Virus record (IMG/VR): IMGVR_UViG_3300029131_000011
Coordinates: 1 to 42,996 of that record
Origin: a virus
Reading direction: 5' to 3' (one strand)
DNA length: 42,996 nt
Shown here: one piece after another, positions 1,137 to 21,530 of the stretch
How the letters are laid out: each line of letters starts with the position of its first letter
Numbering within the stretch: position 1 is the stretch's first letter
Program-made: the position numbers and the translations under genes
Notes under the pieces: model-generated
The model's database searches: none
Seen by the model: only the letters and a program-made list of their open reading frames with translations
Told to the model about the DNA's origin: nothing

Positions 1137-1252
1137 AGTAAAATTCCTTTCTTTTTCGCCCGCAGGCGTTATTTCATTCGTAGCTGTTCTTCCTGCCCCC
1201 GGTCGCTTACGATGCTCACGACCTTGCAATCGCCGCTTCTCGCTTGATGTAT

Positions 1253-1913: not shown

Positions 1914-2005
1914 CGGTTTACCATGCTTACCCGTCCAATCTGCTTTGCACTTCTCTCAGTCCATGATTGCCTGTCCATCGGTGTCTCGCTTCGTCAGTCG
2001 TTCCA

Positions 2006-2934: not shown

Positions 2935-3020
2935 GATGAAATTCCTCCTGATTTTTGTTAAAATTAAAAGTTCTCTCTGAGCCTCTGCCCGTTGATATCC
3001 GCGTACATGGTCATTCCTCC

Positions 3021-4168: not shown

Positions 4169-4410
4169 CGGCGCCCCTCACATTCCCCGAACAGCTCCCG
4201 GAACGTCATCCCCGTCAAGTCTTCCAGTGCGAGGAACGCCCGCACGGTCACATCCACGTCTCCCTTGATATACCGGCTCACGTTGGTCGCCGAAATGCCG
4301 GTCGCCTCGGCAAGCGTGGCCTGGTTGTAGTCGGTCTTTTCAAGCGCCGCCTTAAGCCCTGGATACGGGCAGCGCTCCCACGGGGTCTTGCTCATAACGA
4401 ATCGGCTCAT
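4165..4410 (-). CDS. HTH (XRE-like) DNA-binding protein
   Basis: NQATLAEATGISATNVSRYIKG helix-turn-helix pattern. 81 aa. Confidence 0.65.
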   Translation of the reverse strand: MSRFVMSKTPWERCPYPGLKAALEKTDYNQATLAEATGISATNVSRYIKGDVDVTVRAFLALEDLTGMTFRELFGECEGRR

Positions 4411-4411
4411 G

Positions 4412-4843
4412 TCATTTCCCTCCTAACAGCGCCGCGATGGACACGTCCAGCGCTTCGGCGAGATAGAGATACGTCGTGACTATACCGTATCGCTCGCCGC
4501 GCTCAATGGATGAAATCGTGCTGTCCGCGACGCCTGACTTCTCCGCAAGCTCTGTTTGGTTCATTCCGCGCATCAGCCGCAATGCTTTCACACGCTCGCC
4601 GATGCGTTTCTCGGTCGAGATTCCGCTTTTTCCCTTGTCATCCTCCCGCAAAAAGTCGAGCAGGTTGATGCCGACGGCGCGGCAAATCCGCTCGCACAGT
4701 GGAATAGTCGGCATGATGCGCGCCATCTCGTAGTTGCACAGCTGCCCTTGCTCAATGCCGCACATGGCGGCAAAACTCGCTTGGCTCATGCCAGCGGCAG
4801 TTCTCAGCCCACGAATTCGCTCCGCAGTGTCTTTTACATTCAT
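4412..4843 (-). CDS. Tandem double-HTH (XRE family) regulator
   Basis: Two HTH units, GMSQASFAAMCGIEQGQLCNYE and GMNQTELAEKSGVADSTISSIERG. SD GAGGGAG. Confidence 0.75.
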   Translation of the reverse strand: MNVKDTAERIRGLRTAAGMSQASFAAMCGIEQGQLCNYEMARIMPTIPLCERICRAVGINLLDFLREDDKGKSGISTEKRIGERVKALRLMRGMNQTELAEKSGVADSTISSIERGERYGIVTTYLYLAEALDVSIAALLGGK

Positions 4844-4856
4844 CTTTTTCGCTCCC

Positions 4857-5051
4857 TCATTTCGTTCGTTGATAGCGCCTCGTCTTAAACTGCCGCGCGC
4901 CCCAATAGGCGCCGCGTTCCTGCGTTTGTCGCGCTTCCTCTTCCTTTGCCTCGTTGTACTTGGCGATATCCGCCTGATAGTACGGGCAATCGCCGTGACA
5001 GCCTACGTGCCGCGTCGGTGGCTTGCAGCTGTGGCAGTGCTCAAAGCTCAT
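4857..5051 (-). CDS. Small Cys/His-rich (zinc-binding-like) protein
   Basis: 64 aa, HCHSCKPPTRHVGCHGDCPYY followed by a basic tail. Overlaps the RusA stop. Confidence 0.55.
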   Translation of the reverse strand: MSFEHCHSCKPPTRHVGCHGDCPYYQADIAKYNEAKEEEARQTQERGAYWGARQFKTRRYQRTK

Positions 5052-5466
5052 CTCTTTCCTCCACGCTCCTGATTGTTACCGCCGTAAACGGTTCTTCCAT
5101 CGTGTAAATTTTTCTCCCATAAACGCTATACACGGCAGAATCGTCCTTGTACGCATAGCCATTGAGCGCGTCCAGTACCGCCTTGATGATGTTGTCAATG
5201 TCTCCGCGCTTGAGATACGGGGCCAAATGCAATTTCCCACTTTTGCTTTTTGGCGTTCCCGATGGGATGGGGAAATAAGCATTTACCATGACATCCAGCG
5301 CTTCGCCATCTTCAAACGGCTTTTCGCCGCACTCGAGCCACGCCGCGCGAATCGCAGATTCGAAAATCTGCGTGCTTTTCGGCGTATATGCCCCATGCCG
5401 CGTAACGCGTGGTCTTCCCTTCGGCACGGGTCTCCCATCAACGGCAAATGTGACTATTCGTTCCAT
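5041..5466 (-). CDS. rusA: RusA-family Holliday junction resolvase
   Basis: FAVDGRPVPKGRPRVTRHGAYTPKST...YFPIP....K......P..KRGDIDNIIKAVLDALNG.AYKDD is the RusA signature. Confidence 0.85.
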   Translation of the reverse strand: MERIVTFAVDGRPVPKGRPRVTRHGAYTPKSTQIFESAIRAAWLECGEKPFEDGEALDVMVNAYFPIPSGTPKSKSGKLHLAPYLKRGDIDNIIKAVLDALNGYAYKDDSAVYSVYGRKIYTMEEPFTAVTIRSVEERDEL

Positions 5467-5469
5467 GTG

Positions 5470-5844
5470 TCAACCTCCCATTTCGGCAGCTGCCGCTTCC
5501 CACGTCAGCCCGTGTTCTCTCGCATAACGCGATACGCTCGGCATGAACGCCTCCTGTTCGGCTGTCCGCTCGATGTATGGCTTCATCCACGCCACCGAGA
5601 CTCGCGGGGAAGCTGCACCCCTGATCTTTGCAAGCACTTGGCCGACCTTCGGGGGGAATCCCCTCGTATCCTCGGCGATCAGCGCATTCACTGCGTCCAT
5701 CGCCTCGGCGGGGTCTTCATTGCCCAGCATGTCCGACCAGAGGGCAACCATCTCTTCGGCTTCTGCTCTGGTCATCTTGGCATAGGCCTGCGGATAGGCC
5801 TGTTTTACTCGCCCAAAAAGGCTAATTACGTCAGCTCTTTCCAC
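5470..5844 (-). CDS. G39P-like helicase loader/replication accessory protein
   Basis: GTG 5844 lies 8 nt after GAGGAGG. ISLFGRVKQAYPQAYAKM...VALWSDMLGNEDPAEAMDAVNALI...GFPPKVGQVL resembles the loader/inhibitor-of-G40P family. Confidence 0.45.
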   Translation of the reverse strand: MERADVISLFGRVKQAYPQAYAKMTRAEAEEMVALWSDMLGNEDPAEAMDAVNALIAEDTRGFPPKVGQVLAKIRGAASPRVSVAWMKPYIERTAEQEAFMPSVSRYAREHGLTWEAAAAEMGG

Positions 5845-6661
5845 GGTTCTTTTCCTCCTCCAACATCTCGGCGAATACATCGCCGCCTACAAACGTCCTA
5901 TTCTGCGGTGCTTTGCCGCCCTTGTCCTGCTCTCTGGCAAGCCAAGCGGCGATGAAACGCTTAATCCCTCCGCGTGTCTTTCGCTTGGTAGGGTTCGCGT
6001 CGCACCATCCCGCCATGTTTCTGAGCTGTTGTAGAACGTCAACGTTCGGATAGAGCTGCGACCATTTGGTCCTGTCGCTCTCCGACACGTCGAAAAAAGT
6101 CCCGTCATTCAGCGGCAAAGAAATCACCGGCAGCGCGTCAGCCGCTTGCGGCTCAGCGCATAATATGTACTCTTCTTTACTCTTCTCTACTCTACTTTTC
6201 TCTACTTTACTTTGTCGTTCGATGTCAGCATTTTTTGAAAAAATGTTTACATTTTTCGAAGAAATGTAAACATTGGGCAAAATTTGGGCAACATCAACCA
6301 GAAGGATGTTGTAATCGACTTCGAGAGTTTTACGGCGGCTGACTGCCTCGAAGTACCTTTCCTGTATGCCTTTAGAGGTCAATACGTGGTACTTGTCATA
6401 CTTCTCTTTGTCGAACATCCCTCGTCTGATAGAAGCCTCTATTATTTCGGAAACGACGCTCCCACCCAACCCGACCTTGCGGGCGAACAAAAGCGCAACC
6501 TCCTCTGTCCATTCAATGTAGTAACCCGCCTTGCCGTAAATCTCTTGCAGCAAGTGAACGACTACACCAAATCCTGTCAAGCCAAATTCTGCTTCTATCA
6601 GTTCAAACTTTGCGTTCAATGTGACATCAAGCGGAAAGTAATCGATCCCGCTCTTTGCCAT
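5831..6661 (-). CDS. Replisome organizer / replication initiation protein (DUF4373, Lin1244-like N-terminal domain)
   Basis: MAKSGIDYFPLDVTLNAKFELIEAEFGLTGFGVVVHLLQEIYGKAGYYIEW... is typical of DUF4373. Contains internal DNA repeats (see 6170..6274). Confidence 0.75.
   Translation of the reverse strand: MAKSGIDYFPLDVTLNAKFELIEAEFGLTGFGVVVHLLQEIYGKAGYYIEWTEEVALLFARKVGLGGSVVSEIIEASIRRGMFDKEKYDKYHVLTSKGIQERYFEAVSRRKTLEVDYNILLVDVAQILPNVYISSKNVNIFSKNADIERQSKVEKSRVEKSKEEYILCAEPQAADALPVISLPLNDGTFFDVSESDRTKWSQLYPNVDVLQQLRNMAGWCDANPTKRKTRGGIKRFIAAWLAREQDKGGKAPQNRTFVGGDVFAEMLEEEKNRGKS
6242..6274. repeat. 12-bp perfect inverted repeat (aatgtttacatt / aatgtaaacatt, 9-nt spacer) in an AT-rich repeat patch inside the organizer gene; candidate origin element
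   Basis: Read directly. Preceded at 6170..6225 by ctcttc/ctctac direct repeats that encode KVEKSRVEKSKE. Confidence 0.4.
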
Positions 6662-6672
6662 AGACTACTCCC

Positions 6673-7077
6673 TTAAAACGGCAGCTCGCCGTCGTCCTCG
6701 CTGACCTCTGCAAAGCCGCCTGCGGCGCTCTCTGCGGCGTATTTCGGTGCGGCAGTGTTGTTGTCCTCCGAGCGCCTGTTGTCTGCGAAATACACGCTGT
6801 CAGCCTGCACCTCGTAGCTCTTGCGCTTGTTGCCGTTCTTGTCCGTCCAGTCGCGCATCTGCAAGTGCCCTTCAACGCCAATCATGCGACCTTTATCAGC
6901 GTAGTTGCAGAGCACTTCCGCCGTGCCGCGCCATGCGACAACATCGATCCAGTCTGTGCCGCCCTCTTTGCCGTTGCGGTCAACGGCAAGAGGGAACGAC
7001 ACAACGGATACGCCGCTGTTCGTCTTTTTCAGCTCCAAGTCACGCCCGATGCGTCCCATCAGGCACACGCGATTCAT
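6673..7077 (-). CDS. ssb: Single-stranded DNA-binding protein
   Basis: MNRVCLMGRIGRDLELKKT..G.SVVSF.LAV.R... with acidic tail DDGELPF. ATG 7077 lies 2 nt after the RecT stop; the ORF-track start 7083 is GTG. Confidence 0.9.
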   Translation of the reverse strand: MNRVCLMGRIGRDLELKKTNSGVSVVSFPLAVDRNGKEGGTDWIDVVAWRGTAEVLCNYADKGRMIGVEGHLQMRDWTDKNGNKRKSYEVQADSVYFADNRRSEDNNTAAPKYAAESAAGGFAEVSEDDGELPF

Positions 7078-7079
7078 GC

Positions 7080-7898
7080 TCACTGTGCGTCACCGTCGCT
7101 TTCGATGACCTCGCCGGTCGTCTCATCCACGGTGAAGTTCTCCGTCTCGATGACCGTGTCATCGCTCACGGAATACATGTCCTCGCTGATCTTCGTTTTG
7201 ATGGTCTCGTCCTGCGCCACCGCGCGGACAAAGTCGCTCTTGAGCGGCGCATACTTGAGCACGCGCTTGAGCACAGTCTTCTTCGCCATCTCCTCGAAAT
7301 TCGTTTGCCACGGCCCGTTGATGTAGGCCTTGGAAAAGCGCTTCGCGTGGTTACGAACGTCCTCAACGCTCATCACGTCATAGCCAAAGCCACCATCCTT
7401 TGTGCGGAACATCGCGTAGATGAATTTCGGCTCACCGCGCTCACCGCTGGCGGGCTTGTGGTTGAGTTTCGGCTCAAGGCCGAAGGAATACTCAAACTCG
7501 TCGTTCTCGTAAACGACCTGCGCCTGAATAATGCTGACCTCACCGCTGCGGTACGCAAGGTCAATAAGCCCCTTGTACCCCAGTTGGAATTGGCATTCCA
7601 GTTGGCCGTGGTTGCGGTACGGAATCAGGTATGCCTGCCCGAGCGGCGTGTTCGGCTCCATGCCGAGCTGTGCTGCCGTCATCATCGCGCCGAGGAAACT
7701 TTGCGGCGTGGTCTGCGCAAGCTGCTTGTTTGCGCTCAACGCGGAAAGCGTGATGCGTGTGAAGCGCTCCGGCGTGATGACGCTCGGCAGCGCCTTTGCG
7801 ATCTCACCCTCCATCTGCTTGATGTACTGCTGCATCGTGGGATTGCCTTTCTTTACGGCCTGCGCGCCCTGCGCGTTCTGAATCAATCCTTCCTTCAT
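7080..7898 (-). CDS. recT: RecT-family single-strand annealing recombinase
   Basis: ERFTRITLSALSANKQL...SFLGAMMTAAQLGMEPNTPLGQAYLIPY...QFQLGYKGLIDLA is the RecT pattern. Confidence 0.9.
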   Translation of the reverse strand: MKEGLIQNAQGAQAVKKGNPTMQQYIKQMEGEIAKALPSVITPERFTRITLSALSANKQLAQTTPQSFLGAMMTAAQLGMEPNTPLGQAYLIPYRNHGQLECQFQLGYKGLIDLAYRSGEVSIIQAQVVYENDEFEYSFGLEPKLNHKPASGERGEPKFIYAMFRTKDGGFGYDVMSVEDVRNHAKRFSKAYINGPWQTNFEEMAKKTVLKRVLKYAPLKSDFVRAVAQDETIKTKISEDMYSVSDDTVIETENFTVDETTGEVIESDGDAQ

Positions 7899-8881
7899 CT
7901 TTCTTTATCCTCCTTCACCGCAAACTTGCGGAAATTTGTCGTTTTGTAGTAACTGCTCAAGTCCACCTCGGGGTGATCCTTGGCAAACGTCTTTGCGTCA
8001 AAGGTCTGCCGCGACTGCCCCTTCCAGTCGACCGTGTATTTCCCACAGTAGCCGCGCTCGTTGTCACCGAGGTCGGTCATCAACTGCTGCTTGATGGCGT
8101 CCGCGTCCTCCTCGATGGCCTTTTTGCGGCTCATCAGGTATTGATACTGCTCGATGAGGCTTTCGCGCCCGAACAGCTCTACCTCTCCGCCGCCACCCTC
8201 GTAGATGGTCGTGATCGTGTCGGTCGTGCTCTCCGCCCCATCCATAGGAGGCGGGTTGTCGGAGTCCACGTAGTCGCGCCAGAAGTCCTCCGCGCAGCGC
8301 TTGACGGCCTCGATCTCTTCCGGGCTGACGTATACGCTGCTTTCGCACCATTCCGGCGTGTCATCGTCTTTGACCGTCGTGATCTGGTAGCAATAGAAGC
8401 CCTTGCCGAGCACCAGCGCAGAGAGATACCACCGGGCCCAACCGGTCACGGCCAGATACGTCACGCACTGCGCGTAGTAGCTTTCGGGGAAGTCCCCGCC
8501 CTCGTAGCGCTTGAGGTTCAGCGCGCTCGCGGTTTTGCATTCAAGGCCGGAGCTTTCGCCGAGGATCTGCCGGTCGATGTTGGCGTGCAGGTGAGGGCAA
8601 TCCTCGCGGCGCAGCAGGTAGTTCATGCGGCGCACCGCCTTGCGGCTCGCCTCTTCAAAGCGGCTTGCCACATACGGCTCAAGATCGCGCCCGACGCGCA
8701 TCGCCTCGTTTTCCGGCTCTTCGTCAATCCTGCCGGTCTTCTCCGCCCATACCGTGTAGGGCGAACGGTATTTATTCAGGCCCAGCACCGCGCCCATGTC
8801 GCTGCCGCCGAGGCTCTTCTTGCGCTCTTTAAGCCACTCCTCGCGGCTCATCCCGCGCGTCGATATCTTCTGCATCTTCAT
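7895..8881 (-). CDS. YqaJ-like (lambda Exo-type) recombination exonuclease
   Basis: ATG 8881 follows GGGGAGA. EEWLKERKKSLGGSDMGAVLGLNKYRSPYTVW...GRDLEPYV...LECK is the YqaJ viral recombinase pattern. Confidence 0.85.
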   Translation of the reverse strand: MKMQKISTRGMSREEWLKERKKSLGGSDMGAVLGLNKYRSPYTVWAEKTGRIDEEPENEAMRVGRDLEPYVASRFEEASRKAVRRMNYLLRREDCPHLHANIDRQILGESSGLECKTASALNLKRYEGGDFPESYYAQCVTYLAVTGWARWYLSALVLGKGFYCYQITTVKDDDTPEWCESSVYVSPEEIEAVKRCAEDFWRDYVDSDNPPPMDGAESTTDTITTIYEGGGGEVELFGRESLIEQYQYLMSRKKAIEEDADAIKQQLMTDLGDNERGYCGKYTVDWKGQSRQTFDAKTFAKDHPEVDLSSYYKTTNFRKFAVKEDKER

Positions 8882-13157: not shown

Positions 13158-13170
13158 CAACTGTGATTTT

Positions 13171-13199
13171 ATTGTATCATTTTTTACGCCATTACACAA
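13171..13199 (-). promoter_or_regulatory. Candidate promoter (minus strand): TTGTGT, 17 nt, TGATACAAT extended -10
   Basis: The plus strand reads attgta at 13171..13176, tca at 13177..13179 and acacaa at 13194..13199. Confidence 0.5.
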
Positions 13200-13285
13200 C
13201 GTTTTGTGTCCCTCCAAGTAATTATAGTAACGGGCCTATATGTCGATTGTCGCACATAGCGGTGCAAGCATCAATATTTCGAAGT

Positions 13286-13327
13286 AAAGGCACTGCCGCC
13301 CTCTGCAACAAACGGCAGTGCCTTTTT
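13286..13327 (+). terminator. Rho-independent terminator (13-bp perfect stem aaaggcactgccg/cggcagtgccttt plus T-run)
   Basis: Read directly. The T-run follows on the plus strand; the minus-strand version has a weaker U-tract. Confidence 0.6.
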
Positions 13328-13492
13328 GCAGCCAGCGGGAAGCGGTCGCCGCTGCTTGCTTTGACCATACTCCGCTTTACCTTGGCAATTCAACACCGAA
13401 ACATTGCAATAAAACAGCGCTCGACGTGGTTCGACAAGCCATCATCTTGCGACTTCGCGGCGCGAAAATCGGAAAAAATTAAGGTGGCGTAC

Positions 13493-13885
13493 ATGAACAT
13501 TCAAGAAGTGTGCAGAATCCGTAAAGAAGAATTGAAACTGACCTATCAGGACATTTCCGACGCTTCCGGCGTGCCGCTGTCCACCGTGCAGAATTTCTTT
13601 TCCAAATTTTCCAAAGCCCCGTCCATTTATACCGTCGCGCCCATCTGCAAGACGCTGGGGATATCGCTTGATGAAGTGTTTGGAATTTCCGAACGGTTGA
13701 CGCCGACCGAGGAAACTTTGCAAGCGCGCAACGATGAGCTGGAACGCCACGTTGACGCGAAAGCGGACATGATCGAGATCATGCGGCGCGGAGTGCGTAT
13801 CCGAAACATTGTGATTGCTATAATGTTTGTCATTATCGTCTTGCTGGCCGCGTGGTGCTTGTACATTGATTGGAGGGGGATTTAA
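13493..13885 (+). CDS. Membrane-anchored HTH protein (N-terminal XRE-like HTH, coiled coil, C-terminal TM)
   Basis: ATG after AAGGTGG. LTYQDISDASGVPLSTVQNFFS HTH. C-terminal IVIAIMFVIIVLLAAWCLYI. TAATG overlap with the integrase gene. Confidence 0.75.
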   Translation: MNIQEVCRIRKEELKLTYQDISDASGVPLSTVQNFFSKFSKAPSIYTVAPICKTLGISLDEVFGISERLTPTEETLQARNDELERHVDAKADMIEIMRRGVRIRNIVIAIMFVIIVLLAAWCLYIDWRGI

Positions 13886-14898
13886 TGAAAATACCAAAAG
13901 CAAAACTACTACCGTCTGGCAACTGGAATGTCAGCGTCATGGTAGACGGAAAGCGTGTGTCCGTCACAGCGCCTACCAAAAGGCAGGCGGAGAATGAAGC
14001 TGCCGCATTGAAGTCCGGCGCAAAGTCTGCCGCTCGTGCGTCTGAGCGAACGGTCGGCGACGCTATTGACCGATACATTGACAGCAAGGACGCGATACTC
14101 TCCCCCTCCACCGTCAACGGGTACAGAAAACTCCGCAAGGTGGTTTTTCCGGAGCTGATGAGCGTTAAGTGCTCTGCGTTGACGCAGGATCGCGTGCAGC
14201 GTGCCGTGAATAAGATGGCACGAGAAAAGTCCCCTAAGTACGTCCGCAACGCTTACGGCTTATTTACTGCGGCAATGTCGGAGGAATGCCCGGATAAAGT
14301 GTTCCGTGTATCTTTGCCGCAGAAGGAAGCGCCCAAAATCAAAATACCTACCATGGAAGAAATCAGAACCTTACACGAAGACTGCAAGGGCGCAGACTTT
14401 GAATTGCCTTTCCTGCTGGCCGTCTGGCTCGGCCTCCGTACATCGGAGATTAGAGGTCTAACATGGGATTGTCTTGACGGCGATATATTAACGATCAGGC
14501 AAGCAATGGTAGACGGTGAGGACGGTCCGCAGCTCAAGCAGCCAAAAACTTACAGCGGCAACAGAAAGCTGAAAGTGCCGCCGTATATTATGGGGCTGAT
14601 TGAAGCAACACCGCGCACAGATGAGTATATTGTCCATGCAACCAGAAATGTCCTGTATAAGCATCTGCAACGCGCGTGTGCCCGCTGTGGAGTTTCGCCG
14701 TTCCGCTTTCACGACCTCCGGCATGTAAATGCGTCGGTCATGCTCAGGCTCAATGTCCCAGACAAATATGCAATGGAGCGCATGGGGCACTCTACAAACA
14801 ACATGCTAAAAAACGTATATCAGCACACGATGAATGATAAAGCCGTAGCAGTGGCAGATGCCGTTGACGGCTTTTTTGAATCCGAATTTCATCTGTAA
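13885..14898 (+). CDS. int: Tyrosine recombinase (phage integrase)
   Basis: ATG 13885 follows GGAGGGGG. LAVWLGLRTSEIRGLTW (catalytic Arg), FRFHDLRHVNAS (HxxR), GHSTNNMLKNVYQH (catalytic Tyr). Confidence 0.9.
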   Translation: MKIPKAKLLPSGNWNVSVMVDGKRVSVTAPTKRQAENEAAALKSGAKSAARASERTVGDAIDRYIDSKDAILSPSTVNGYRKLRKVVFPELMSVKCSALTQDRVQRAVNKMAREKSPKYVRNAYGLFTAAMSEECPDKVFRVSLPQKEAPKIKIPTMEEIRTLHEDCKGADFELPFLLAVWLGLRTSEIRGLTWDCLDGDILTIRQAMVDGEDGPQLKQPKTYSGNRKLKVPPYIMGLIEATPRTDEYIVHATRNVLYKHLQRACARCGVSPFRFHDLRHVNASVMLRLNVPDKYAMERMGHSTNNMLKNVYQHTMNDKAVAVADAVDGFFESEFHL

Positions 14899-15004: not shown

Positions 15005-15042
15005 GAAAAACCCCGCAGCCGTTGAGACTGCGAGGTTTTTTT
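15005..15042. terminator. Bidirectional rho-independent terminator between int and the cargo cassette
   Basis: aaaaaa-ccccgcag-ccgttgaga-ctgcgagg-ttttttt. 8-bp stem (U-G wobble on minus, C-A on plus) with A/T runs on both sides. Confidence 0.65.
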
Positions 15043-15044
15043 AA

Positions 15045-15072
15045 TGGTGGAGGCGGCGGGAGTCGAACCCGC
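15045..15072 (-). other. attP core: 28-nt copy of the 3' end (T-arm plus acceptor plus CCA) of a tmRNA/tRNA-like gene
   Basis: The reverse complement gcgggttcgactcccgccgcctccacca has the T-stem/loop GCGGG-TTCGACT-CCCGC and the 3' end ...CTCCACCA, which is typical of Ala-identity acceptors (tmRNA, tRNA-Ala). No matching 5' acceptor strand lies upstream, so it is a fragment. Confidence 0.7.
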
Positions 15073-15117
15073 AACTGAAACAGTAAAAGCATTGGTATTA
15101 CACGATTTTTTGACGCG

Positions 15118-15140
15118 CATCTGTAATTCCATCTGCAATT
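15118..15140. repeat. attP arm-type repeats, right arm: catctgtaatt, catctgcaatt
   Basis: Direct-orientation copy of the motif at 14890..14912. Confidence 0.6.
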
Positions 15141-15460
15141 TATTTTCCCAGTTTGCGCATGACGCTATTATAGACACGCTCGTTCACGATTTTCAAACTG
15201 TCCATCAGCTCGTCCATGATTTCCCACGCCTTGTCCGGTGGAACATCTGCCACTGCATGTAGAAAATCGCTGTCGCCGTATGTTTCGACGCTAACCGGCG
15301 CGGGCGCTGCAGAGTATGCCGTTGGCAAATCTCTCTCTCTACTGCCGCTTTGCTGGTCACGGATGGCATACAGCACGGCAAGGCGCTCATAGTTTGTCCA
15401 GCTTGATTCCTCTGTTTCAAGGCGAGCTATCCAGCGCTTGACCTCATTCTCGTCGACCAT
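15140..15460 (-). CDS. Cargo cassette protein E (106 aa), unknown
   Basis: SD AAGGGGGTGG. Contains YGDSDFLHAVADVPPDKAWEIMDELMDSLKIVNERVYNSVMRKL. Confidence 0.7.
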   Translation of the reverse strand: MVDENEVKRWIARLETEESSWTNYERLAVLYAIRDQQSGSRERDLPTAYSAAPAPVSVETYGDSDFLHAVADVPPDKAWEIMDELMDSLKIVNERVYNSVMRKLGK

Positions 15461-15475
15461 AGGGGGCCACCCCCT

Positions 15476-15829
15476 TTAGCCCTCAATCGTGTCCATGCAA
15501 CGTTGGATTGCTCTGCGGATGCTGTCATCGTCCGCATCGTCAAGCATCTCCTGCAACTGGCGCTTCATCTTGTCCATTGCCCCGTCACGGGAGTAATGTC
15601 CGCGGACGTAGTGCGTGTTGCGTCTGTTTCTGCCACGCATGTCGTACTCGTCGCGGCGGCTGGAATAGCCGTCCTCTTCAAGCGTTTCGATCTTGTCGAT
15701 ATTCTTGATGGTATCGGTCAACTTATGCACAATGTCAAGGTCGCCCGCGCCAAGCTCGCCCTTGCGGGTGATCTCTTCCAGCTCCTTGCAGAGCATATCG
15801 CGCAGGTCATACATAGATTTCATACCCAT
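15476..15829 (-). CDS. Cargo cassette protein D (117 aa), helical with an Arg/Tyr-rich basic segment, unknown
   Basis: SD AAGGAG. Contains RRDEYDMRGRNRRNTHYVRGHYSRDG. Confidence 0.7.
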   Translation of the reverse strand: MGMKSMYDLRDMLCKELEEITRKGELGAGDLDIVHKLTDTIKNIDKIETLEEDGYSSRRDEYDMRGRNRRNTHYVRGHYSRDGAMDKMKRQLQEMLDDADDDSIRRAIQRCMDTIEG

Positions 15830-15843
15830 TGTTCATTCTCCTT

Positions 15844-16266
15844 TCAACTTACGCGCTCGATGGTCAGGTTACTGTTGGCAAAGCTGACCGCCTCCGCGCT
15901 GGTGTTCTTCGCTGCCACCGTCACGCAGCAGCCGCGCGGCACTTCCACGATGGCGCTGACATAGACGTTAAAGTAGTTCTCCACCGCAGCGGGCGTGACG
16001 GTCGCCGTAGCTCCGTTGAGCGCTTCACCGTTGACAGCGAGCGCCGTTGTGATCGCGCCTACCGTTCCGCCCGTGGGGACGGCGATGTTTGCGCCAAAGC
16101 TCACCTTAAAGCGCGCCTTGCACTGCTGCGTCAATCCGCGCAGGGTGACAAGTCCGCTGCCCTCGCGGTGGACGATGCAGGGCTTGCCGCAAGCCGCCGT
16201 GGAGACCATCGGCACATTCTGCCCAGCAGGAACAGTAACAATGCCAGCGGTAACGTATTCAGCCAT
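15844..16266 (-). CDS. Cargo cassette protein C (140 aa), beta-rich, Cys-containing (possible jelly-roll/C1q-like fold), unknown
   Basis: ATG 16266 follows AGGAGG; the longer ORF-track start is rejected. Contains ACGKPC, QQCKARFKVSFGANIAVPTGGTVGAI and VPRGCCVTVAAKN. Confidence 0.7.
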   Translation of the reverse strand: MAEYVTAGIVTVPAGQNVPMVSTAACGKPCIVHREGSGLVTLRGLTQQCKARFKVSFGANIAVPTGGTVGAITTALAVNGEALNGATATVTPAAVENYFNVYVSAIVEVPRGCCVTVAAKNTSAEAVSFANSNLTIERVS

Positions 16267-16474
16267 TTTTCTTCTCCTCCTTTTTCCAAGTAGTTGCCGC
16301 AAAAGGGGGAATGAAGCCGGATGCAAGTACATCTGTATAGCTTGGCTTGAAAAGAGCATCCGCCTTATGCAGCAGATCGGCATAGTTTGTGAGTTCGAAC
16401 ATGCTCATTTCGGACTTATCCATAGCGGCAAGATGGTCTACAAATTCTTGTTTCAGCTCGTCAATCGTTTTCAT
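16259..16474 (-). CDS. Cargo cassette protein B (71 aa), unknown
   Basis: SD AAAGGA. 8-nt overlap with the downstream gene. Confidence 0.6.
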   Translation of the reverse strand: MKTIDELKQEFVDHLAAMDKSEMSMFELTNYADLLHKADALFKPSYTDVLASGFIPPFAATTWKKEEKKNG

Positions 16475-16577
16475 GAGTTCAGTCCTTTCTAAAGGGGTCG
16501 ATTTCGACCCGGTTAAAATGCAGCGGCAGGGCTATTGCCCCGCCGCGTTTGTCGTAGTATCGGCACGGGGCCGAACA

Positions 16578-16597
16578 TTTTGTTGACGTCAACAAAA
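16578..16597. repeat. Perfect 20-bp palindrome ttttgttgac|gtcaacaaaa in the 155-bp gap between cargo genes
   Basis: Read directly. Candidate operator. Confidence 0.6.
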
Positions 16598-16629
16598 CAT
16601 CGCCAACAAAAAGCTATGCTATGCAGTTG

Positions 16630-17400
16630 TCAGCAGCCGCAACCCTGATTGCAGCCGCAGCCGCAACCCCCGTACTGATAAGGTGCAGGAACCGCAAAAG
16701 AAGGAACGGGGCGCGGATTGTAATACGCGAACTGTGCGCTAACATAGTTGCGCATATCAAGCGTCTGAGCAGACTGAGAAGCCGCGAGGTCAGCAGCAAA
16801 AAGACGCTGGTTCTGTTCAGCAATCTTCGCGTCCTTCGCAGCCAGTTCCTGCGCGGTCAGACGCTGGTCGATGCTACGGAAGCCGCAATTCATCGCGTCG
16901 ATGATGTCGCGGGTATTGGTCTGGAGCTGATTGCGCGTGTCGCAGCCCTGCGACGCCATGTCATAGCGCACGCCCTCGATGCCGCGCTGGGTGTTGCAGC
17001 AACACTCAGCGGCCTGCATCTGCATGGCGTTGAGCTGCTGCATAAGCGCCGCCTGCTGGTTGCTGCGGGAAAGCTCGGCATTGCCGAAGCCGGTGTTGAT
17101 GGCCTGTGTGGTCGTAGCAAAGCCGCCAGTAATGGCATTGTTCAACGCAAAGGTGGAATCGCAAATGCCATTTGCAATACTGTCGAGCTTGCGCTCAACG
17201 CTCGCAAAGTCAGATGTCAGAACGTAGCCGTCCATCACACCGCCGCCGTTACCGTTGCCAAATCCGTTGCGGCCCCAGCCGAAGAGGAAAAGAACGATAA
17301 TCCAGATCCAGCTGTCGCCCCACATACCCATACCGCCGCCGTAATTGTTCGCGGGGGTGACCGGCATAGTCATCATGGGAGTACCATCAGAAAGAGACAT
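16630..17400 (-). CDS. Cargo cassette protein A (256 aa): Gly-rich N-terminus plus TM, Q/N/A-rich helical core with a CCC motif, C-terminal GCGCGC tail, unknown
   Basis: SD AAAGGAGAG. NNYGGGMGMWGDSWIWIIVLFLFGWGRNGFGNGNGGG ... AAECCCNTQ ... YQYGGCGCGCNQGCGC. Confidence 0.75.
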   Translation of the reverse strand: MSLSDGTPMMTMPVTPANNYGGGMGMWGDSWIWIIVLFLFGWGRNGFGNGNGGGVMDGYVLTSDFASVERKLDSIANGICDSTFALNNAITGGFATTTQAINTGFGNAELSRSNQQAALMQQLNAMQMQAAECCCNTQRGIEGVRYDMASQGCDTRNQLQTNTRDIIDAMNCGFRSIDQRLTAQELAAKDAKIAEQNQRLFAADLAASQSAQTLDMRNYVSAQFAYYNPRPVPSFAVPAPYQYGGCGCGCNQGCGC

Positions 17401-17452
17401 GTTATCTCTCCTTTCAATAAGTTTTTATTTACAACTTTCTGGCCAGAAAATG

Positions 17453-17481
17453 TTGTATCAATGTTGAAAATATGGTATAAT
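17453..17481 (+). promoter_or_regulatory. Strong sigma-A-type promoter: TTGTAT, 17 nt, TGgTATAAT (perfect extended -10)
   Basis: Read directly. Followed by a 93-nt leader containing a hairpin at 17488..17538 (gcacgga/tccgtgc plus taggg/tccta). Confidence 0.65.
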
Positions 17482-17574
17482 TGATATGCACGGATAGGGT
17501 AGCTCCCGACAAGCCGAAAGTCCTATCGGTTTCCGTGCAATACAAAATTTAGGACTGCACGAAAGGACAGTGCT

Positions 17575-18420
17575 ATGCCGTACAGAGACAAAGGTTTTTA
17601 CGCTCAAAAACACCAACAACTAATCGGTCAAAAATTTAACCGCTTAACTATCCTTGATATTTGGATTGATAAGGTAAAAGGTTACTATGTGTGCAAATGC
17701 AAGTGTGAATGCGGAAGCGAAACTGTAACCCGACTATCTCCCGTAAAAAACGGGGGAATAAAATCTTGCGGATGCATTCGGTACAAATACAGGAAAGCGC
17801 CTATAATGGGCTGCAAATTGTATACAGGTCGTTCAAAGCATCCCCTTTACAACACTTGGAACAACATGCTTGGGCGATGTGAAAACCCAAATGATGAAAT
17901 GTTCAAGAATTATGGTGGCAGGGGCATTTCCGTTTGCAACCAGTGGCATGATTTTGATAAATTTATAGAATGGTCAGATTCAGTTGGTGGTCGTCCTGAT
18001 GGATGCTCTATTGACCGAATTGATGTAAACGGAAACTATTGCCCTGAAAATTGCAGATGGGCTACCAATGAAATTCAGCAAAACAACAAAACTACAAGCC
18101 AGTATCTAACATACAAAGGCGAAACAAAAACGCTTGCTGAATGGTGCCGAAAACTCGGGTTGAGCCGATATTCCGTTCAATATCGCTTTATGCAAGGCTG
18201 GTCGGCTGAAGATATATTAGAAATCCCGTTAAACCATCGGAAAGACGAATACCGAAGAAAAATTTTGCAGAGAACAAAAGACGGGATCATTGTTGCAACA
18301 TATAATGGCCTTTCGGATTTGCCAGAAGAATATAAAATGACATCAGTATCTTCGGCTTGTAACGGTCATTATAAGCGGGATACTTACAAAGGTTATATTT
18401 GGGAGTATGCAGAGGGCTAA
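17575..18420 (+). CDS. HNH/AP2-like homing-endonuclease-like DNA-binding protein (free-standing, AT-rich)
   Basis: GQKFNRLTIL...YVCKCKCECGSETV....GGIKSCGC; HPLYNTWNNMLGRCENP....KNYGGRGISVCNQW..F..F..W; SIDRIDVNGNYCPENCRWAT..QQNN; C-terminal ...YKGYIWEY. Patterns common to phage HNH/NUMOD-type proteins. Confidence 0.6.
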   Translation: MPYRDKGFYAQKHQQLIGQKFNRLTILDIWIDKVKGYYVCKCKCECGSETVTRLSPVKNGGIKSCGCIRYKYRKAPIMGCKLYTGRSKHPLYNTWNNMLGRCENPNDEMFKNYGGRGISVCNQWHDFDKFIEWSDSVGGRPDGCSIDRIDVNGNYCPENCRWATNEIQQNNKTTSQYLTYKGETKTLAEWCRKLGLSRYSVQYRFMQGWSAEDILEIPLNHRKDEYRRKILQRTKDGIIVATYNGLSDLPEEYKMTSVSSACNGHYKRDTYKGYIWEYAEG

Positions 18421-18437
18421 ATGCCCTCTGCTTTTTT
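18409..18437 (+). terminator. Rho-independent terminator of the HNH-like gene (gcagagggc-taaat-gccctctgc-tttttt)
   Basis: 9-bp perfect stem with the stop codon in the loop, followed by a T6 run. Confidence 0.75.
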
Positions 18438-18654
18438 AGCGGAACAAATGCTCGAACTGCTTTGCCATCGTTTGCAGTTGGTTTAACTCCTGCTGGCTCA
18501 TAGCGCCAGATTGCAGGAGCTTATTGACTTCTTCTTTCGGGTTCCCCTGAAAGCCGCTTTGGAACTGTTGGAATTTCTGCTTGAGCTGCATCAGCTCACC
18601 CATCGCCCCCGGCATCTGCCCGCCGCCCAGCGCGGCCATGAACGGATTAGTCAT
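18436..18654 (-). CDS. Hypothetical Q-rich small protein (72 aa)
   Basis: ATG 18654 overlaps the upstream stop by 8 nt. MTNPFMAALGGGQMPGAMGELMQLKQKFQQFQ... Confidence 0.55.
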   Translation of the reverse strand: MTNPFMAALGGGQMPGAMGELMQLKQKFQQFQSGFQGNPKEEVNKLLQSGAMSQQELNQLQTMAKQFEHLFR

Positions 18655-19084
18655 CGTCCTCGTCCTCCTCAACCTTGCGCTTCTTCTTGCCCTTTAATTC
18701 GCCCACAAGCGCCGCCAGCGCGTCAAACTCTTTGCGGGTGACAAATTCCGCACCCTTTTCCTGCGGAGCTGTGCGGGGCGTTTCCGTGCGCTCTACGAGG
18801 TCATAAATCTTTAGCGTCGGTTTCCCGCTTGCATCCGCCTGCTTGAGATACACAGTCGGCGCGGTAGAATCCCACAGTGCTACGGCAGAGTTGGGCGCGA
18901 TGAGATATCCTCTTGCCTCCTGCTCGCCGCTTACCCACTGCACGCCGCCCTGCGCGATGGGGTTCTGTTGCACTGGCTGCGACATAGGCTGCTGCATGGG
19001 CTGCATCTGCTGCATCTGCCGCATCTGCATGAGATTGTCCGGCATTGGCTGCGGATAATAGGGATTGAAATAGGGATATGCCAT
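18647..19084 (-). CDS. Hypothetical protein with a P/Q/M-rich N-terminus, a conserved core and an acidic tail
   Basis: ATG 19084 lies 7 nt after GGAGGA. YPYFNPYYPQPMPDNLMQMRQMQQMQPMQQP...GGVQWVSGEQEARGYLIAPNSAVALWDS...KKKRKVEEDEDDD. Confidence 0.65.
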   Translation of the reverse strand: MAYPYFNPYYPQPMPDNLMQMRQMQQMQPMQQPMSQPVQQNPIAQGGVQWVSGEQEARGYLIAPNSAVALWDSTAPTVYLKQADASGKPTLKIYDLVERTETPRTAPQEKGAEFVTRKEFDALAALVGELKGKKKRKVEEDEDDD

Positions 19085-19086
19085 GT

Positions 19087-19470
19087 TCATTCCTCCGTTT
19101 CTTTTACCCAGTAATAAAGCGGGATCTCATTCTCGCTGTTCCAACTGTCATAGATTGTCCCGTCCTGAACGCACACCACATGACCGGAGAGGGCGAGAAT
19201 ATACGTCCCGCGCGGGTGCTCATCGGCAAACCTTCCGACTGTGTAGCAGTCGGGGCAGGTGTCCGGTATGATATAGCGCCGATAGCCCAAAGACCGCAGA
19301 TACGCGCCCCAACAGGCATTTGCATTGGGTAAGTCGCCGTCAAGGTAGCCCTGTATGCAGAGGGACAAATACACCTCGCCCCAGTCCTTCCCCGTCGCCT
19401 TGCAGATCGCACGCACGGTGCAATCGGACACATTACGCCCAGTGGGATTTGGATTGAAATAGCTATACAT
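19087..19470 (-). CDS. Hypothetical protein with a conserved Cys...His pattern (possible papain-like fold)
   Basis: NVSDCTVRAICKATGKDWGEVY ... GTYILALSGHVVCVQDGTIYDSWNS. Function not recognised. Confidence 0.65.
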   Translation of the reverse strand: MYSYFNPNPTGRNVSDCTVRAICKATGKDWGEVYLSLCIQGYLDGDLPNANACWGAYLRSLGYRRYIIPDTCPDCYTVGRFADEHPRGTYILALSGHVVCVQDGTIYDSWNSENEIPLYYWVKETEE

Positions 19471-19585
19471 GGAATAGCTCCGCGAAATAGACGTAAGTGC
19501 GCAGCTCGTCAGGGTCGGGGAACAGCGTCAAAATGTCCATTGCCATCTGCTCAGTAAAGCCCAAAGCTAAAAGTCGGTCGTACAT
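19463..19585 (-). CDS. Small ORF (40 aa, below the ORF-track cutoff)
   Basis: ATG 19585 follows AAAGGAGGTG. MYDRLLALGFTEQMAMDILTLFPDPDELRTYVYFAELFHV. Overlaps the next start. Confidence 0.5.
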   Translation of the reverse strand: MYDRLLALGFTEQMAMDILTLFPDPDELRTYVYFAELFHV

Positions 19586-19615
19586 CGCCGCACCTCCTTT
19601 GTTGTTTATATGGTA

Positions 19616-19644
19616 CAAAAAAACGGGCGCTCAAAAGCGCCCGT
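19616..19644 (-). terminator. Rho-independent terminator (acgggcgc-ttttga-gcgcccgt-ttttttt on the minus strand)
   Basis: 8-bp GC stem plus a T7 run, read on the minus strand. Confidence 0.75.
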
Positions 19645-19753
19645 AAAGTGTATGAAAAGTGCGTCGAAAACCGTCGAACGATTCTGCTTGCCTTTCCACA
19701 TGAAACATGATATTTTAATTTTGCAGGTTCTTCCCGGCCCGCTTTTTACACAA

Positions 19754-19789
19754 AAGAAATTGCCTCACCATTTGGTGGGGCAATTTCTT
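19754..19789. terminator. 16-bp hairpin (aagaaattgcctcacc/ggtggggcaatttctt) with U-rich flanks on both strands, covering the stop codon of 19765..20025
   Basis: Read directly. T6 run on plus, uuucuuuugugu on minus. Confidence 0.55.
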
Positions 19790-20025
19790 TTTTCGTGTTG
19801 GTCTGATGAAATTTTGTGGTACGCCCGTTGCCGGTATTTTTTAACCGCGTCAACGGACAGGTTGTGCTCCATTGCGACCTGTACGCAGCTTTTCCGCCGC
19901 ACATCGCGCTCGATGATGCACGCCGCCTCTTCAGGCGGCAATTCGAGGGATAAGATATATTCGACGGCTCGCGGGGGGGCCATCGCGGATAACTCCGCCC
20001 GGATACGCTTGTGCTGACTGTTCAT
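19765..20025 (-). CDS. Sigma-70 region-4/LuxR-like HTH protein (86 aa)
   Basis: LELPPEEAACIIERDVRRKSCVQVAMEHNLSVDAVKKYRQRAYHKI is a region-4-like HTH. Confidence 0.55.
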   Translation of the reverse strand: MNSQHKRIRAELSAMAPPRAVEYILSLELPPEEAACIIERDVRRKSCVQVAMEHNLSVDAVKKYRQRAYHKISSDQHEKRNCPTKW

Positions 20026-20109: not shown

Positions 20110-20685
20110 TTACTTCATTACGGCGAGTTTTCTAATGAGGTCATCCCCATACTTGTACGCCGCGAGATAGTCCATCGTCTTGTCCTCAAGCCCCGCGCGC
20201 TTTTTGAGCACCTCGCGGTAACTTGCCTCATACTTCGGGCGGTATGCGCCCAGCACAAGCGACAGCTTGCGCTTTCGGCAATATACCCCGTCGCCGTTGC
20301 TCTGGCTGCCGGTGTTGCCGTTGGAGGTATTGCCTTCGATGGCGGTCACATACTGCCCGCTGACGCTTTCGCAGATGCCCGTGTGGTCGGTCTTGACCTT
20401 CGTGTTGGGAAAGTCATAGATGAGCACGTCGCCCGGCTGATAGCCGGACGTGACCCACTGCCCGTGAGCCTTGGCGTAGTTCATCAGCTCGCCGCAGCTT
20501 GCGGTCTTTCCACCGCCGTAGAAGAGGGACTTATCCACCTGCTGAAAGCACCACCACACAAACTGCATGCACCAGTACACGCCGTCCACGCCGTAGGCCT
20601 TGCCATACTTCTGGCGGTTGCCCGGCTGCTCCACCGTGCCGATCTCCTTGCGCGCGATGGCAAGGATGTCTTCTGCTCTCGCCAT
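20110..20685 (-). CDS. CHAP-domain endolysin
   Basis: NRQKYGKAYGVDGVYWCMQFVWW (catalytic Cys), GDVLIYDF....DHTGI (His), IEGNTS. Follows the holins. Confidence 0.85.
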   Translation of the reverse strand: MARAEDILAIARKEIGTVEQPGNRQKYGKAYGVDGVYWCMQFVWWCFQQVDKSLFYGGGKTASCGELMNYAKAHGQWVTSGYQPGDVLIYDFPNTKVKTDHTGICESVSGQYVTAIEGNTSNGNTGSQSNGDGVYCRKRKLSLVLGAYRPKYEASYREVLKKRAGLEDKTMDYLAAYKYGDDLIRKLAVMK

Positions 20686-20687
20686 GT

Positions 20688-20897
20688 TTACGCCCCCTTG
20701 TCGATGGCGTCCTGATTTTTCTGCGACTGAGTCCCGAAATAGAATGCGATGATAGAGCTATAGATTAGCATAAGCTGCTCGCCCGTGATCTTGCCAACGA
20801 CAAAGCCGTAGATCACCGCGCCGGTTGCGGCGATCGTCACAATGCTCTTCACGCTGCACAGGTTCGCCAGTCTCTTTTTCAGCAAATCGTTATTCAT
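20688..20897 (-). CDS. Holin-like membrane protein (69 aa)
   Basis: ATG 20897 in an ATGA overlap. Two hydrophobic segments (IVTIAATGAVIYGFVVG, LMLIYSSIIAFYFG). Confidence 0.6.
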   Translation of the reverse strand: MNNDLLKKRLANLCSVKSIVTIAATGAVIYGFVVGKITGEQLMLIYSSIIAFYFGTQSQKNQDAIDKGA

Positions 20898-21118
20898 AGT
20901 GTTGTGTCGTCCTTTCTGAAAATCTTGATGCCTGCCACAACGACAAGCTCTGTTGTCCATGCCTTAAACCAGCGTTCCGTCAGCACGTCGGGCGGCGGCA
21001 CGCCGAGCGCCGCCATGGTGAGCGAGGCGACGGTGTACCACGTCAGGCTGAAAATGGCGATGGATATGTACTTGTCCCGCTTTTTCATCTTGCCCCAGTG
21101 CTCTTTCAGCTTTTTCAT
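20894..21118 (-). CDS. Holin-like membrane protein (74 aa)
   Basis: ATG 21118 in an ATGA overlap with the 38-aa ORF. ISIAIFSLTWYTVASLTMAAL and TTELVVVAGIKIF. Confidence 0.55.
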   Translation of the reverse strand: MKKLKEHWGKMKKRDKYISIAIFSLTWYTVASLTMAALGVPPPDVLTERWFKAWTTELVVVAGIKIFRKDDTTL

Positions 21119-21231
21119 GCCATGCACCACATCCATAGTTCGCGGATGCCCTTGACGGCCGCCGCCGCGCCGACCAGCAAGGCCGCGCCCACAATAATGG
21201 CAACTGCCACCTCGGCAAAATCATCCATCAT
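21115..21231 (-). CDS. Small TM peptide (38 aa, below the ORF-track cutoff)
   Basis: MMDDFAEVAVAIIVGAALLVGAAAAVKGIRELWMWCMA. GGGAGGTG upstream. ATGA overlaps on both sides. Confidence 0.5.
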   Translation of the reverse strand: MMDDFAEVAVAIIVGAALLVGAAAAVKGIRELWMWCMA

Positions 21232-21530
21232 GCCACACCTCCCGAGATGATCCACGCCACAAACGCACCGACTAGCGCTGCAAGCAGCTTGTCCACGATG
21301 CTGTCCCAGCGCTTCCCCGCCTTGCCCGTGATGGTCTTCACGTCCTCCTTGATCTCCTTGACGTCGCCCTCCACGGTCTCTTGTTTTGTGGCCAGCACCT
21401 CGACCGAGGTCACCAGCCGGTCAAGCGCCACCTGATGTTCTGTCAGCTCGTTGATTCGGTGCGTGTTGCTCTTGCACCTCGATTCAATTAGCGCGATTGC
21501 CGCGTCATCATAGTGCTTAGCATTATCCAT
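21228..21530 (-). CDS. XhlA-like lysis accessory protein (coiled coil plus C-terminal TM)
   Basis: 100 aa. Coiled coil followed by LLAALVGAFVAWIISGGVA. Sits at the head of the lysis cassette, as in PBSX xhlA-xhlB-xlyA. Confidence 0.55.
   Translation of the reverse strand: MDNAKHYDDAAIALIESRCKSNTHRINELTEHQVALDRLVTSVEVLATKQETVEGDVKEIKEDVKTITGKAGKRWDSIVDKLLAALVGAFVAWIISGGVA

Follow-up and report, generated by a model that had tools for sequence, protein, structure and literature searches.

Several described systems bear a likeness to parts of the locus reported here. In the exosporium of the Bacillus cereus group, the C-terminal domains (CTD) of BclA and F-BclA and the protein ExsFA/BxpB have a TNF/C1q-type jelly-roll fold, ExsFA/BxpB as a stand-alone protein of ~140–170 amino acids (aa). 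The ENA spore assemblies (S-, L- and F-ENA; Pradhan 2021, Sleutel 2024/2025, PMC12357932) are reported to consist of small beta-sandwich subunits with Cys-rich terminal peptides and of BclA-like trimer tips. In phages of Gram-negative hosts, two-component spanins (Rz/Rz1) pair an i-spanin, with an N-terminal transmembrane domain and periplasmic coiled coils, with an o-spanin lipoprotein. Small proteins of the sigma-region-4, DUF1492, ArpU and RinA types are late activators of Firmicutes phages. Here we describe a gene cassette at positions 15140..20025 of the viral record IMGVR_UViG_3300029131_000011, the whole stretch of which (42,996 nucleotides) is called the window below. As a system this cassette matches nothing described before, and a literature search found no paper describing it. 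Our preferred reading is tentative (probability roughly 0.35): the cassette would be driven very late by an activator and would build a membrane-anchored, cysteine-cross-linked assembly, in which its protein A is the anchor and its protein C a trimeric head.

Extent, conservation and spread of the cassette

The first-pass annotation of the window had singled out five minus-strand open reading frames (ORFs), A to E, as a cargo cassette of a prophage. All five were found at the positions it gave, the motifs quoted from their products are present, and each ORF is preceded by an AGGAG-type Shine–Dalgarno sequence, that of B (AAAGGA) being the weakest. We compared 80 IMG/VR loci carrying a homologue of C; each count given here is taken over the loci with enough sequence to show the gene in question. 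The five ORFs make up the distal half of a larger, self-regulated cassette that occupies 15140..20025 of the window and has the order regulator, repeat promoter, p40, p127, p147, p78, A, C, D, E. Gene D was present in 76/76 loci and p127 in 66/66; A was found in 67 of 68, E in 68 of 69, p147 in 66 of 67 and p78 in 64 of 68. In all 60 loci having the seven genes from p127 to E (p127-p147-p78-A-C-D-E), these lie on one strand and in the same order. Thus the proposed co-occurrence as a unit stood for A, C, D and E. It did not stand for the set of five, as B is optional (14/77 loci) and p127, p147, p78, the 40-aa ORF p40 and the regulator belong to the unit as well.

Around this constant core the neighbouring genes are swapped. 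Of 58 loci, only 16 have the same integrase; of 57, only 5 have the same endolysin. The notion of variable cargo did not survive this comparison, since the core is near-universal in related loci while integrase and lysis genes change. The median ratio of non-synonymous to synonymous substitution (dN/dS) against relatives was 0.28 (A), 0.10 (B), 0.051 (C; 91 pairs), 0.072 (D) and 0.089 (E); that of p127 was 0.089, and all eight ORFs measured span 0.05–0.28. A to E are confirmed as real genes under purifying selection. The cassette had been placed between attP and the lysis region. Its attP-proximal position is correct; the lysis genes (endolysin, a small protein and an XhlA-like protein; 20110..21530) are not adjacent to the five ORFs, and the sequence in between is part of the conserved unit.

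The cassette, which thousands of phages of Clostridia from gut and rumen carry, was shown to move between unrelated phages. Butyrivibrio virus Ceridwen (locus L101) carries it complete, from regulator to E, after the endolysin gene. This phage was isolated on B. fibrisolvens DSM 3071, has been observed in the lytic cycle only, and has no annotated integrase. In a prophage of Vescimonas fastidiosa MM35, a cultured Oscillospiraceae strain, the cassette stands at the prophage end, adjoining tRNA-Val and host genes (L103), and integrated copies adjoin tRNA genes. In 43-kb phages encoding a polyvalent protein of ~3,760 aa (Pfam LPD23, LPD3 and MuF_C; 1..8100; L092–L096), it lies between this giant gene and the integrase gene and is devoid of E. 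In Dulem virus 39 (L090) it lies between the integrase gene and the lysogeny switch, and Dulem virus 33 carries it too. A 9.8-kb contig, possibly a plasmid or satellite and not a phage, has it beside Rep_3 and resolvase genes (4982..6141; L099), and a 120-kb bacterial contig retains a remnant consisting of a fragment of A, C and D (L091). Strong selection acts on the cassette, an autonomous module bound neither to lysogeny nor to sporulating hosts nor to a single type of virion.

These contexts bear directly on the idea that the cassette is lysogenic-conversion cargo, expressed from the prophage and altering the cell or spore surface of the lysogen. Temperate members do carry it at the attachment-site end, and it has its own terminator and a predicted promoter of its own, as morons have. 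The patchy and temperate-only occurrence of morons is not seen: the cassette is near-universal in this phage group, and it is complete in Ceridwen, which made a strictly lysogenic role doubtful. Its candidate activator gene lies behind the endolysin gene, in the late operon. Vescimonas coprocola, the type species of its genus, is described as non-spore-forming and Gram-stain-negative, and the earlier comparison with spore-coat and exosporium assemblies is weakened by this fact. Butyrivibrio is likewise non-spore-forming. Overall, we consider conversion an improbable explanation.

The genes were called uncharacterised, and this holds. In searches of Pfam, NCBIfam and PADLOC, none of the cassette products, those of A to E included, had a significant match, and PHROGs returned only families of unknown function. 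Sequence searches of the Protein Data Bank (PDB) with A, C, p127 and p147 gave no match, nor did profile searches of the PDB with the families of C, p127 and C2 (a protein of a second cassette type, described below). PADLOC run on eight proteins of the cassette region returned only insignificant matches, to Csm2 (E-value 0.012) and to MTase_II (E-value 0.035), the latter on a probably spurious plus-strand ORF. No nuclease, ATPase, NTase or other effector domain was found among the cassette proteins in Pfam and NCBIfam. These results leave a module for defence, superinfection exclusion or anti-defence, which the first-pass annotation had also considered, devoid of positive evidence from PADLOC. 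The mobility of the cassette, its own regulator, its several genome positions and its anchored protein, of a kind found in many exclusion systems, would suit such a module, and in temperate members it occupies a region often holding phage defence genes. However, defence genes are usually patchy and fast-evolving, whereas this cassette is near-universal and under strong purifying selection, and seven to eight genes are many for an exclusion system. A defence function appears very unlikely.

Protein C, its Cys-rich partner A and the other products

C (140 aa; 15844..16266, minus strand) is the most conserved gene of the cassette. A longer ORF variant of 179 aa extends to 16383; the 140-aa start is the correct one, as more than 100 homologues have 140 aa. 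We modelled C with AlphaFold2 from an alignment of 55 diverse homologues and obtained an all-beta structure with a predicted local distance difference test score (pLDDT) of 96.4 and a predicted template-modelling score (pTM) of 0.88. When this model was compared with the PDB by Foldseek, the best matches were BclA-CTD, F-BclA-CTD and ExsFA/BxpB (1wck, 9h38, 7r1m, 8d02; E-value ~1e-6, template-modelling (TM) score 0.69–0.76), followed by EDA, 4-1BBL, C1q and phage fibre knobs. From the model we confidently assign to C a BclA/ExsF-type TNF/C1q fold, within the jelly-roll superfamily, in agreement with the earlier guess of a jelly-roll or C1q-like protein. In BFVD, stand-alone uncharacterised proteins of 130–145 aa from gut phages labelled as sipho-, podo- and myoviruses matched C with TM scores of 0.83–0.93. 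The family has at least 7,888 matches in a protein collection clustered at 90% identity, forming 578 clusters at 50% identity, from human, lemur, rodent and rumen samples. C is a new and very large stand-alone branch of the BclA/TNF-fold superfamily.

C shares with the exosporium proteins its fold and, as with ExsFA/BxpB, its stand-alone form, and it is encoded together with a Cys-rich partner. The differences are considerable. Identity to the BclA-type proteins is 10–14% only. Sequence-level support is thin: the Pfam family BclA_C (PF18573) matches 2 of 55 members of the C family (best E-value 0.0019), and the C of the window does not match it at E-value ≤1. C starts directly with its first beta strand and has no N-terminal extension, so that there is neither a collagen-like GXX stalk nor an exosporium-targeting motif ahead of the domain; GXX repeats were not seen on inspection of the sequences of C and A. 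The cassette has no homologue of ExsY/CotY, and it belongs to phages of Vescimonas and Butyrivibrio. The BclA/ExsF fold and the Cys-, Gly-, Tyr- and Gln-rich compositions, which recall coat and exosporium proteins, would favour the conversion of a spore surface; against this, besides the few BclA_C matches, no match to DUF3992 (Ena) or to a coat or exosporium family was obtained.

The partner of C is A (256 aa; 16630..17400, minus strand), which consists of a Gly-rich N-terminus, a hydrophobic anchor (WIWIIVLFLF), two helices, a CCC motif, a Pro-rich segment and a CGC tail. It matches phrog_16490 (E-value 1.7e-40), and its homologues number more than 6,600. What sequences as distant as 34% identity still have in common is the Gly-rich N-terminus, a hydrophobic core of 10–15 residues, CCC, Pro-x-Pro and CGC, and among the aligned homologues the CCC motif and the C-terminal CGC are invariant. 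Helices were predicted at 79–132 and 150–225, in a model whose pLDDT was only 38.8 (AlphaFold2, alignment of 20 sequences). Of the one transmembrane segment that had been proposed, the hydrophobic segment is there; as a membrane span it is borderline. We inspected the N-termini of the cassette proteins and saw neither a signal peptide nor a lipobox, and by sequence inspection and hydropathy only the segment of A is hydrophobic enough for a signal peptide or a membrane span. The ‘sporesilk’ hairpins of A-ENA were considered as a model for A and dropped, as they are reported to be isopeptide-linked hairpin fibres and have no evident link to it.

A second cassette type retains the regulator and p147-like, p78-like, A-like and D-like genes. 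Its C slot is occupied by C2, an unrelated protein of 127–146 aa whose N-terminus is Cys-rich (CxxxCxxC or GxGCGGC) and which has several more conserved cysteines in its interior (L089, 7878..8297; L104, 4267..4671; L105, 4097..4480; L106, 4320..4760). C2 had no match in Pfam or the PDB. That it might be a distant homologue of C was rejected (hhalign probability 1.6%). The Cys-rich N-terminus recalls Ena-type subunits, with no detectable homology to C or to solved structures. This type was found after the lysin gene (bajarodcaudo virus 5), in the portal–capsid interval (bajarodcaudo virus 2, L104), after the gene for the receptor-binding protein (Dulem virus 36, L105) and after the capsid gene (MT835477, L106).

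The fold of C and these last positions raise the question of whether the products are virion accessories, with A and C forming an extra fibre, whisker or head decoration and D and E serving as assembly chaperones. TNF/C1q-type knobs are common on phage fibre tips, and the Foldseek matches of C include the central spike knob of phi812, the short-fibre domain of cyanophage A-1(L) and many fibre proteins in BFVD. The cassette is co-oriented with the late genes, its products are without signal peptides, as virion proteins are, and its location in the morphogenesis region in L104, L105 and L106 keeps this explanation alive. The pattern of conservation points the other way: C is far more conserved than A, whereas receptor-binding heads are normally the most variable parts, and this argues against a receptor-binding head. 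A has a hydrophobic anchor. The cassette has its own regulator and promoter, terminators set it apart from the late operon, and it is found in phages with unrelated structural genes, beside Rep_3 and resolvase genes and inside the lysogeny region. Such separate regulation and mobility across structural backgrounds argue against a core role in the virion or in lysis. PHROGs offered no structural annotation, the sole hint being an insignificant match of E to a tail chaperone family (E-value 0.24). On balance, we regard a virion function as possible though unlikely.

Among the remaining products, p127 (19087..19470, minus strand; phrog_3754) is a putative papain-like hydrolase with invariant Cys17, His97 and Asp108. 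It matches phrog_15863, a family of 312-aa proteins, weakly (E-value 2.5e-7) and has no match in the PDB or Pfam; a homology search returned 1,177 relatives, none of them named. The family also occurs stand-alone in phages of Bacillus and Geobacillus, where some records read ‘putative peptidase’. In two examples of the second cassette type, Dulem virus 39 (L090, 9228..9545) and MT835477 (L106, 5437..5823), a small HExxH metallopeptidase-like gene follows the D-like gene and the p127-type hydrolase is absent; each cassette type may need some peptidase. The Cys-His-Asp triad also suggests, as a lead and not as a claim, that p127 might modify the Gln-rich p147 and p78 as a transglutaminase, by analogy with Tgl on GerQ. 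The p147 protein (18647..19090, minus strand; phrog_21718) has an N-terminus rich in Gln, Pro, Met and Tyr, followed by a small conserved domain and a helical tail that is charged, and its counterparts occur across all cassette variants. The small Gln/Met-rich p78 (18436..18672, minus strand; phrog_22984) probably starts in truth at Met7, at 18654; like p147 it is rich in Gln, Pro and Met. D (117 aa; 15476..15829, minus strand) has acidic helical ends, a Gly/Tyr/Arg/Ser-rich centre and a conserved HYVRGHYSRD, and it has counterparts of 126–332 aa in all cassette variants. E (106 aa; 15140..15460, minus strand) is helical and carries the conserved motif YGDS(D/E)F...W.(I/V)MDELM, and its identity to the Ceridwen homologue is 31%. 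The 40-aa ORF p40 (19463..19585, minus strand) has a strong Shine–Dalgarno sequence, and its end overlaps the start of p127. Relatives, Dulem virus 33 and Ceridwen among them, keep this reading frame upstream of p127.

Control region, inserted elements and flanks

The regulator gene of the cassette (19765..20025, minus strand), directly behind the endolysin gene, encodes a small helix-turn-helix (HTH) protein of 86 aa that resembles sigma70 region 4 and is the candidate activator of the cassette. Its Pfam matches to Sigma70_r4_2 (E-value 2.4e-4) and Sigma70_r4 (E-value 4.4e-3) both fall below the gathering score, and it has a weak match to DUF1492 as well; in bajarodcaudo virus 5 its counterpart scores above the Sigma70_r4 cut-off. 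Most relatives have a homologous small ORF between lysin and cassette. Like the late activators of Firmicutes phages, the regulator is small, consists of the HTH part only and lies upstream of its predicted target operon. It differs from them in that it follows the lysis genes and does not precede the terminase gene, and in that its predicted target is one accessory cassette with 11-bp-phased repeats.

These repeats are three direct copies, GCACTTT, ACACTTT and GCGCTTT, at an exact spacing of 11 bp (19634..19662, minus strand), and they are candidate binding sites of the activator. None of 2000 shuffles reached three phased copies in the window, where such an array is unique, and for 5 of 7 upstream regions put to this test no shuffle out of 2000 reached the 11-bp-phased array. 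Most relatives tested have 2–4 copies of some word at equal spacing and equal position. The word differs between groups (TGACCA, GGCAG, GGGCA, AAGAC, TGACCC, AGTAAT, ATTGC) and, in at least six groups, co-varies with the type of recognition helix predicted for the HTH protein. Where other genes part the regulator from the cassette, the array still adjoins the cassette. Downstream of the repeats we assigned by eye a -10-like box, TACCATATAAAC (19604..19616, minus strand), and in most relatives inspected, again by eye, a TAYNAT/CATACT hexamer lies 28–34 nt before the first start codon. A scan for sigma-70 promoters did not call the box at 19604..19616. From this arrangement we infer an activator-dependent promoter, with the small HTH protein as the candidate activator. 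We do not count a plus-strand ORF of 135 aa in this region (19610..20017) as a gene; it runs antisense to the conserved gene of the regulator, and this accounts for its partial ‘conservation’ in tblastn.

No terminator was predicted between the endolysin gene and the regulator gene. A bidirectional terminator-like hairpin (19752..19791) overlaps the stop codon of the regulator, and the last repeat copy falls inside another such hairpin (19644..19623). The order holin/lysin, regulator, cassette recurs in most variants. Since the regulator gene stands behind the endolysin gene with no intervening terminator, the cassette most likely fires after the late operon, at the very end of lytic development.

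Such a position invites an explanation in terms of lysis, namely an accessory function that completes the disruption of the envelope after holin and endolysin, with A as a spanin-like protein and p127 as an extra wall peptidase. The order just described recurs in several independent contexts. A has a candidate N-terminal anchor, two long helices predicted in a low-confidence model, conserved cysteines and a Pro-rich C-terminal part, a layout that would recall i-spanin plus o-spanin (Rz/Rz1), and p127 contributes its triad and the weak phrog_15863 match. The staining of V. coprocola is also in keeping with this explanation, and Butyrivibrio, too, stains Gram-negative despite a Gram-positive-type wall. 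However, the hosts are single-membrane Clostridia, and no lipoprotein partner was seen among the cassette N-termini inspected. The cassette is a separate transcription unit, divided from the lysis genes by terminators and its own promoter, and in Dulem virus 39 and bajarodcaudo virus 2 it is distant from them. It contains TNF-fold and low-complexity proteins for which spanins have no equivalent and which have no obvious lytic role. A lysis function seems to us quite unlikely.

Two insertions interrupt the cassette in the window. The optional gene B (71 aa; 16259..16474, minus strand), which has no family match, lies between A and C, and the 155-bp gap that separates it from A (16475..16629) contains the perfect 20-bp palindrome noticed at first pass, TTTTGTTGACGTCAACAAAA (16578..16597), as well as a terminator-like hairpin (16546..16523). 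The palindrome is confined to loci carrying B; therefore B, palindrome and hairpin are one optional insertion. The other insertion, at 17487..18431 on the plus strand, is not a part of the cassette. It comprises an int-alpA RNA motif (17487..17553; Rfam RF02996, 40.4 bits against a gathering score of 35.8) and, directly downstream, a gene for an HNH endonuclease (17575..18420; phrog_374, E-value 6e-65) with its own terminator (18409..18431). This HNH gene was present in 0 of 49 close relatives and is an intruder that splits the operon. The int-alpA motif adjoins neither an integrase gene nor an alpA gene here. HNH genes of the homing type occupy at least three intergenic sites of the cassette (window, L083, L070, L078, L087, L101): the p78–A gap in L083 and Dulem virus 33, the A–C gap in L070 and L078, and the C–D gap in Ceridwen. 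Homing elements may prefer the cassette as a target.

The 99-bp terminal overlap of the window identifies it as a circular phage genome of 42,897 bp. Beyond E, the end of the cassette (15006..15158, minus strand) consists of the hairpin 15006..15040, which is terminator-like and bidirectional as had been noted, and of attP, which contains a tRNA/tmRNA-like 3' end (core 15047..15078). This minus-strand 3' end, ...GGTTCGACTCCCGCCGCCTCCACCA, lies between E and the tyrosine integrase gene (13870..14898). The same fragment was found 3' of E in ten relatives, and contig L057 stops exactly at its CCA. The label ‘attP-proximal’ is right, because this 3' end adjoins E and the integrase gene and recurs in relatives. 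The acceptor strand of the core reads CGCCTCC-A-CCA, like a tmRNA or tRNA-Ala-type 3' end, and Rfam gave a partial tmRNA match on 15045..15158 (minus strand; 22 bits, under the gathering score). The integration site of the phage is probably ssrA. Upstream of the integrase gene, an ORF at 13163..13885 (plus strand) encodes an XRE-type HTH (MNIQEVCRIRKEELKLTYQDISDASGVPLSTVQNFF...) and a C-terminal hydrophobic segment (IVIAIMFVIIVLLAAW), and its product may be a membrane-tethered repressor. The phage also encodes a tRNA-Ile with the unusual anticodon AAT (42582..42658, minus strand), as predicted by ARAGORN.

A possible cross-linked assembly

We propose the following for the assembly named at the outset. 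The regulator, encoded behind the endolysin gene, would switch the cassette on at the end of lytic development. The product would be a non-virion assembly of proteins, anchored by A and cross-linked through cysteines. A would provide the anchor and a stalk, and C would be a trimeric head bound near the Cys-rich end of A; p147, p78 and D would be low-complexity matrix or cross-linking partners, and p127 a processing enzyme. The observations that we count in favour of an assembly are the fold of C, its conservation, the invariant CCC and CGC of A, the presence of the Cys-rich C2 in the C slot of the second type, and the finding that A alone among the products has a segment hydrophobic enough for a signal peptide or a membrane span. 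The logic would be like that of the BclA-ExsF-ExsY and ENA spore assemblies, but in infected vegetative cells. Release, protection or adhesion of the progeny are candidate purposes.

The likeness to ENA is one of logic. The ENA assemblies are reported to be very stable and cross-linked. Besides the lack of a DUF3992 match, C has no N-terminal Cys connector, and the Cys-rich tail is found on A instead.

Several points weigh against a late, membrane-anchored assembly. Concerning the anchor, the maximum 19-residue hydropathy of A is 1.37 over its core of 10–15 residues, which is borderline for a membrane span. Stalk, trimer and topology are guesses, because A could not be modelled with confidence. 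Lacking a signal peptide, C could meet the outward-facing part of A only at lysis. Concerning the timing, the -10-like box was assigned by eye, and terminator-like hairpins stand between the regulator gene and p40. Control by attenuation or read-through is an alternative to activation, consistent with the fact that a terminator hairpin encloses the last repeat in some groups. The cassettes of some phages are remote from every lysis gene, and ‘very late’ timing may therefore not be general.

A bolder form of the proposal is that A, BclA/ExsF-like trimers and prion-like low-complexity proteins make a cross-linked coat or matrix very late, at lysis, which would embed, tether or protect the progeny virions on debris of the cells or make them adhere to gut surfaces. 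We hold this to be a long shot. If true, such a coat would be the phage counterpart of the exosporium nap or of the occlusion bodies of baculoviruses, in vegetative, non-sporulating Clostridia.

The cassette joins a fold of spore surfaces to a Cys-rich anchored protein in phages whose hosts include a genus with a non-spore-forming type species. That genus, Vescimonas, occurs abundantly in the gut of humans and has been linked to leanness. Two culturable systems are at hand, Ceridwen on its Butyrivibrio fibrisolvens host and the MM35 prophage of V. fastidiosa. The function of the cassette, once found, would provide an annotation for thousands of gut-virome genes that are now dark matter, and the cassette could reveal an undescribed stage or structure of phage infection.

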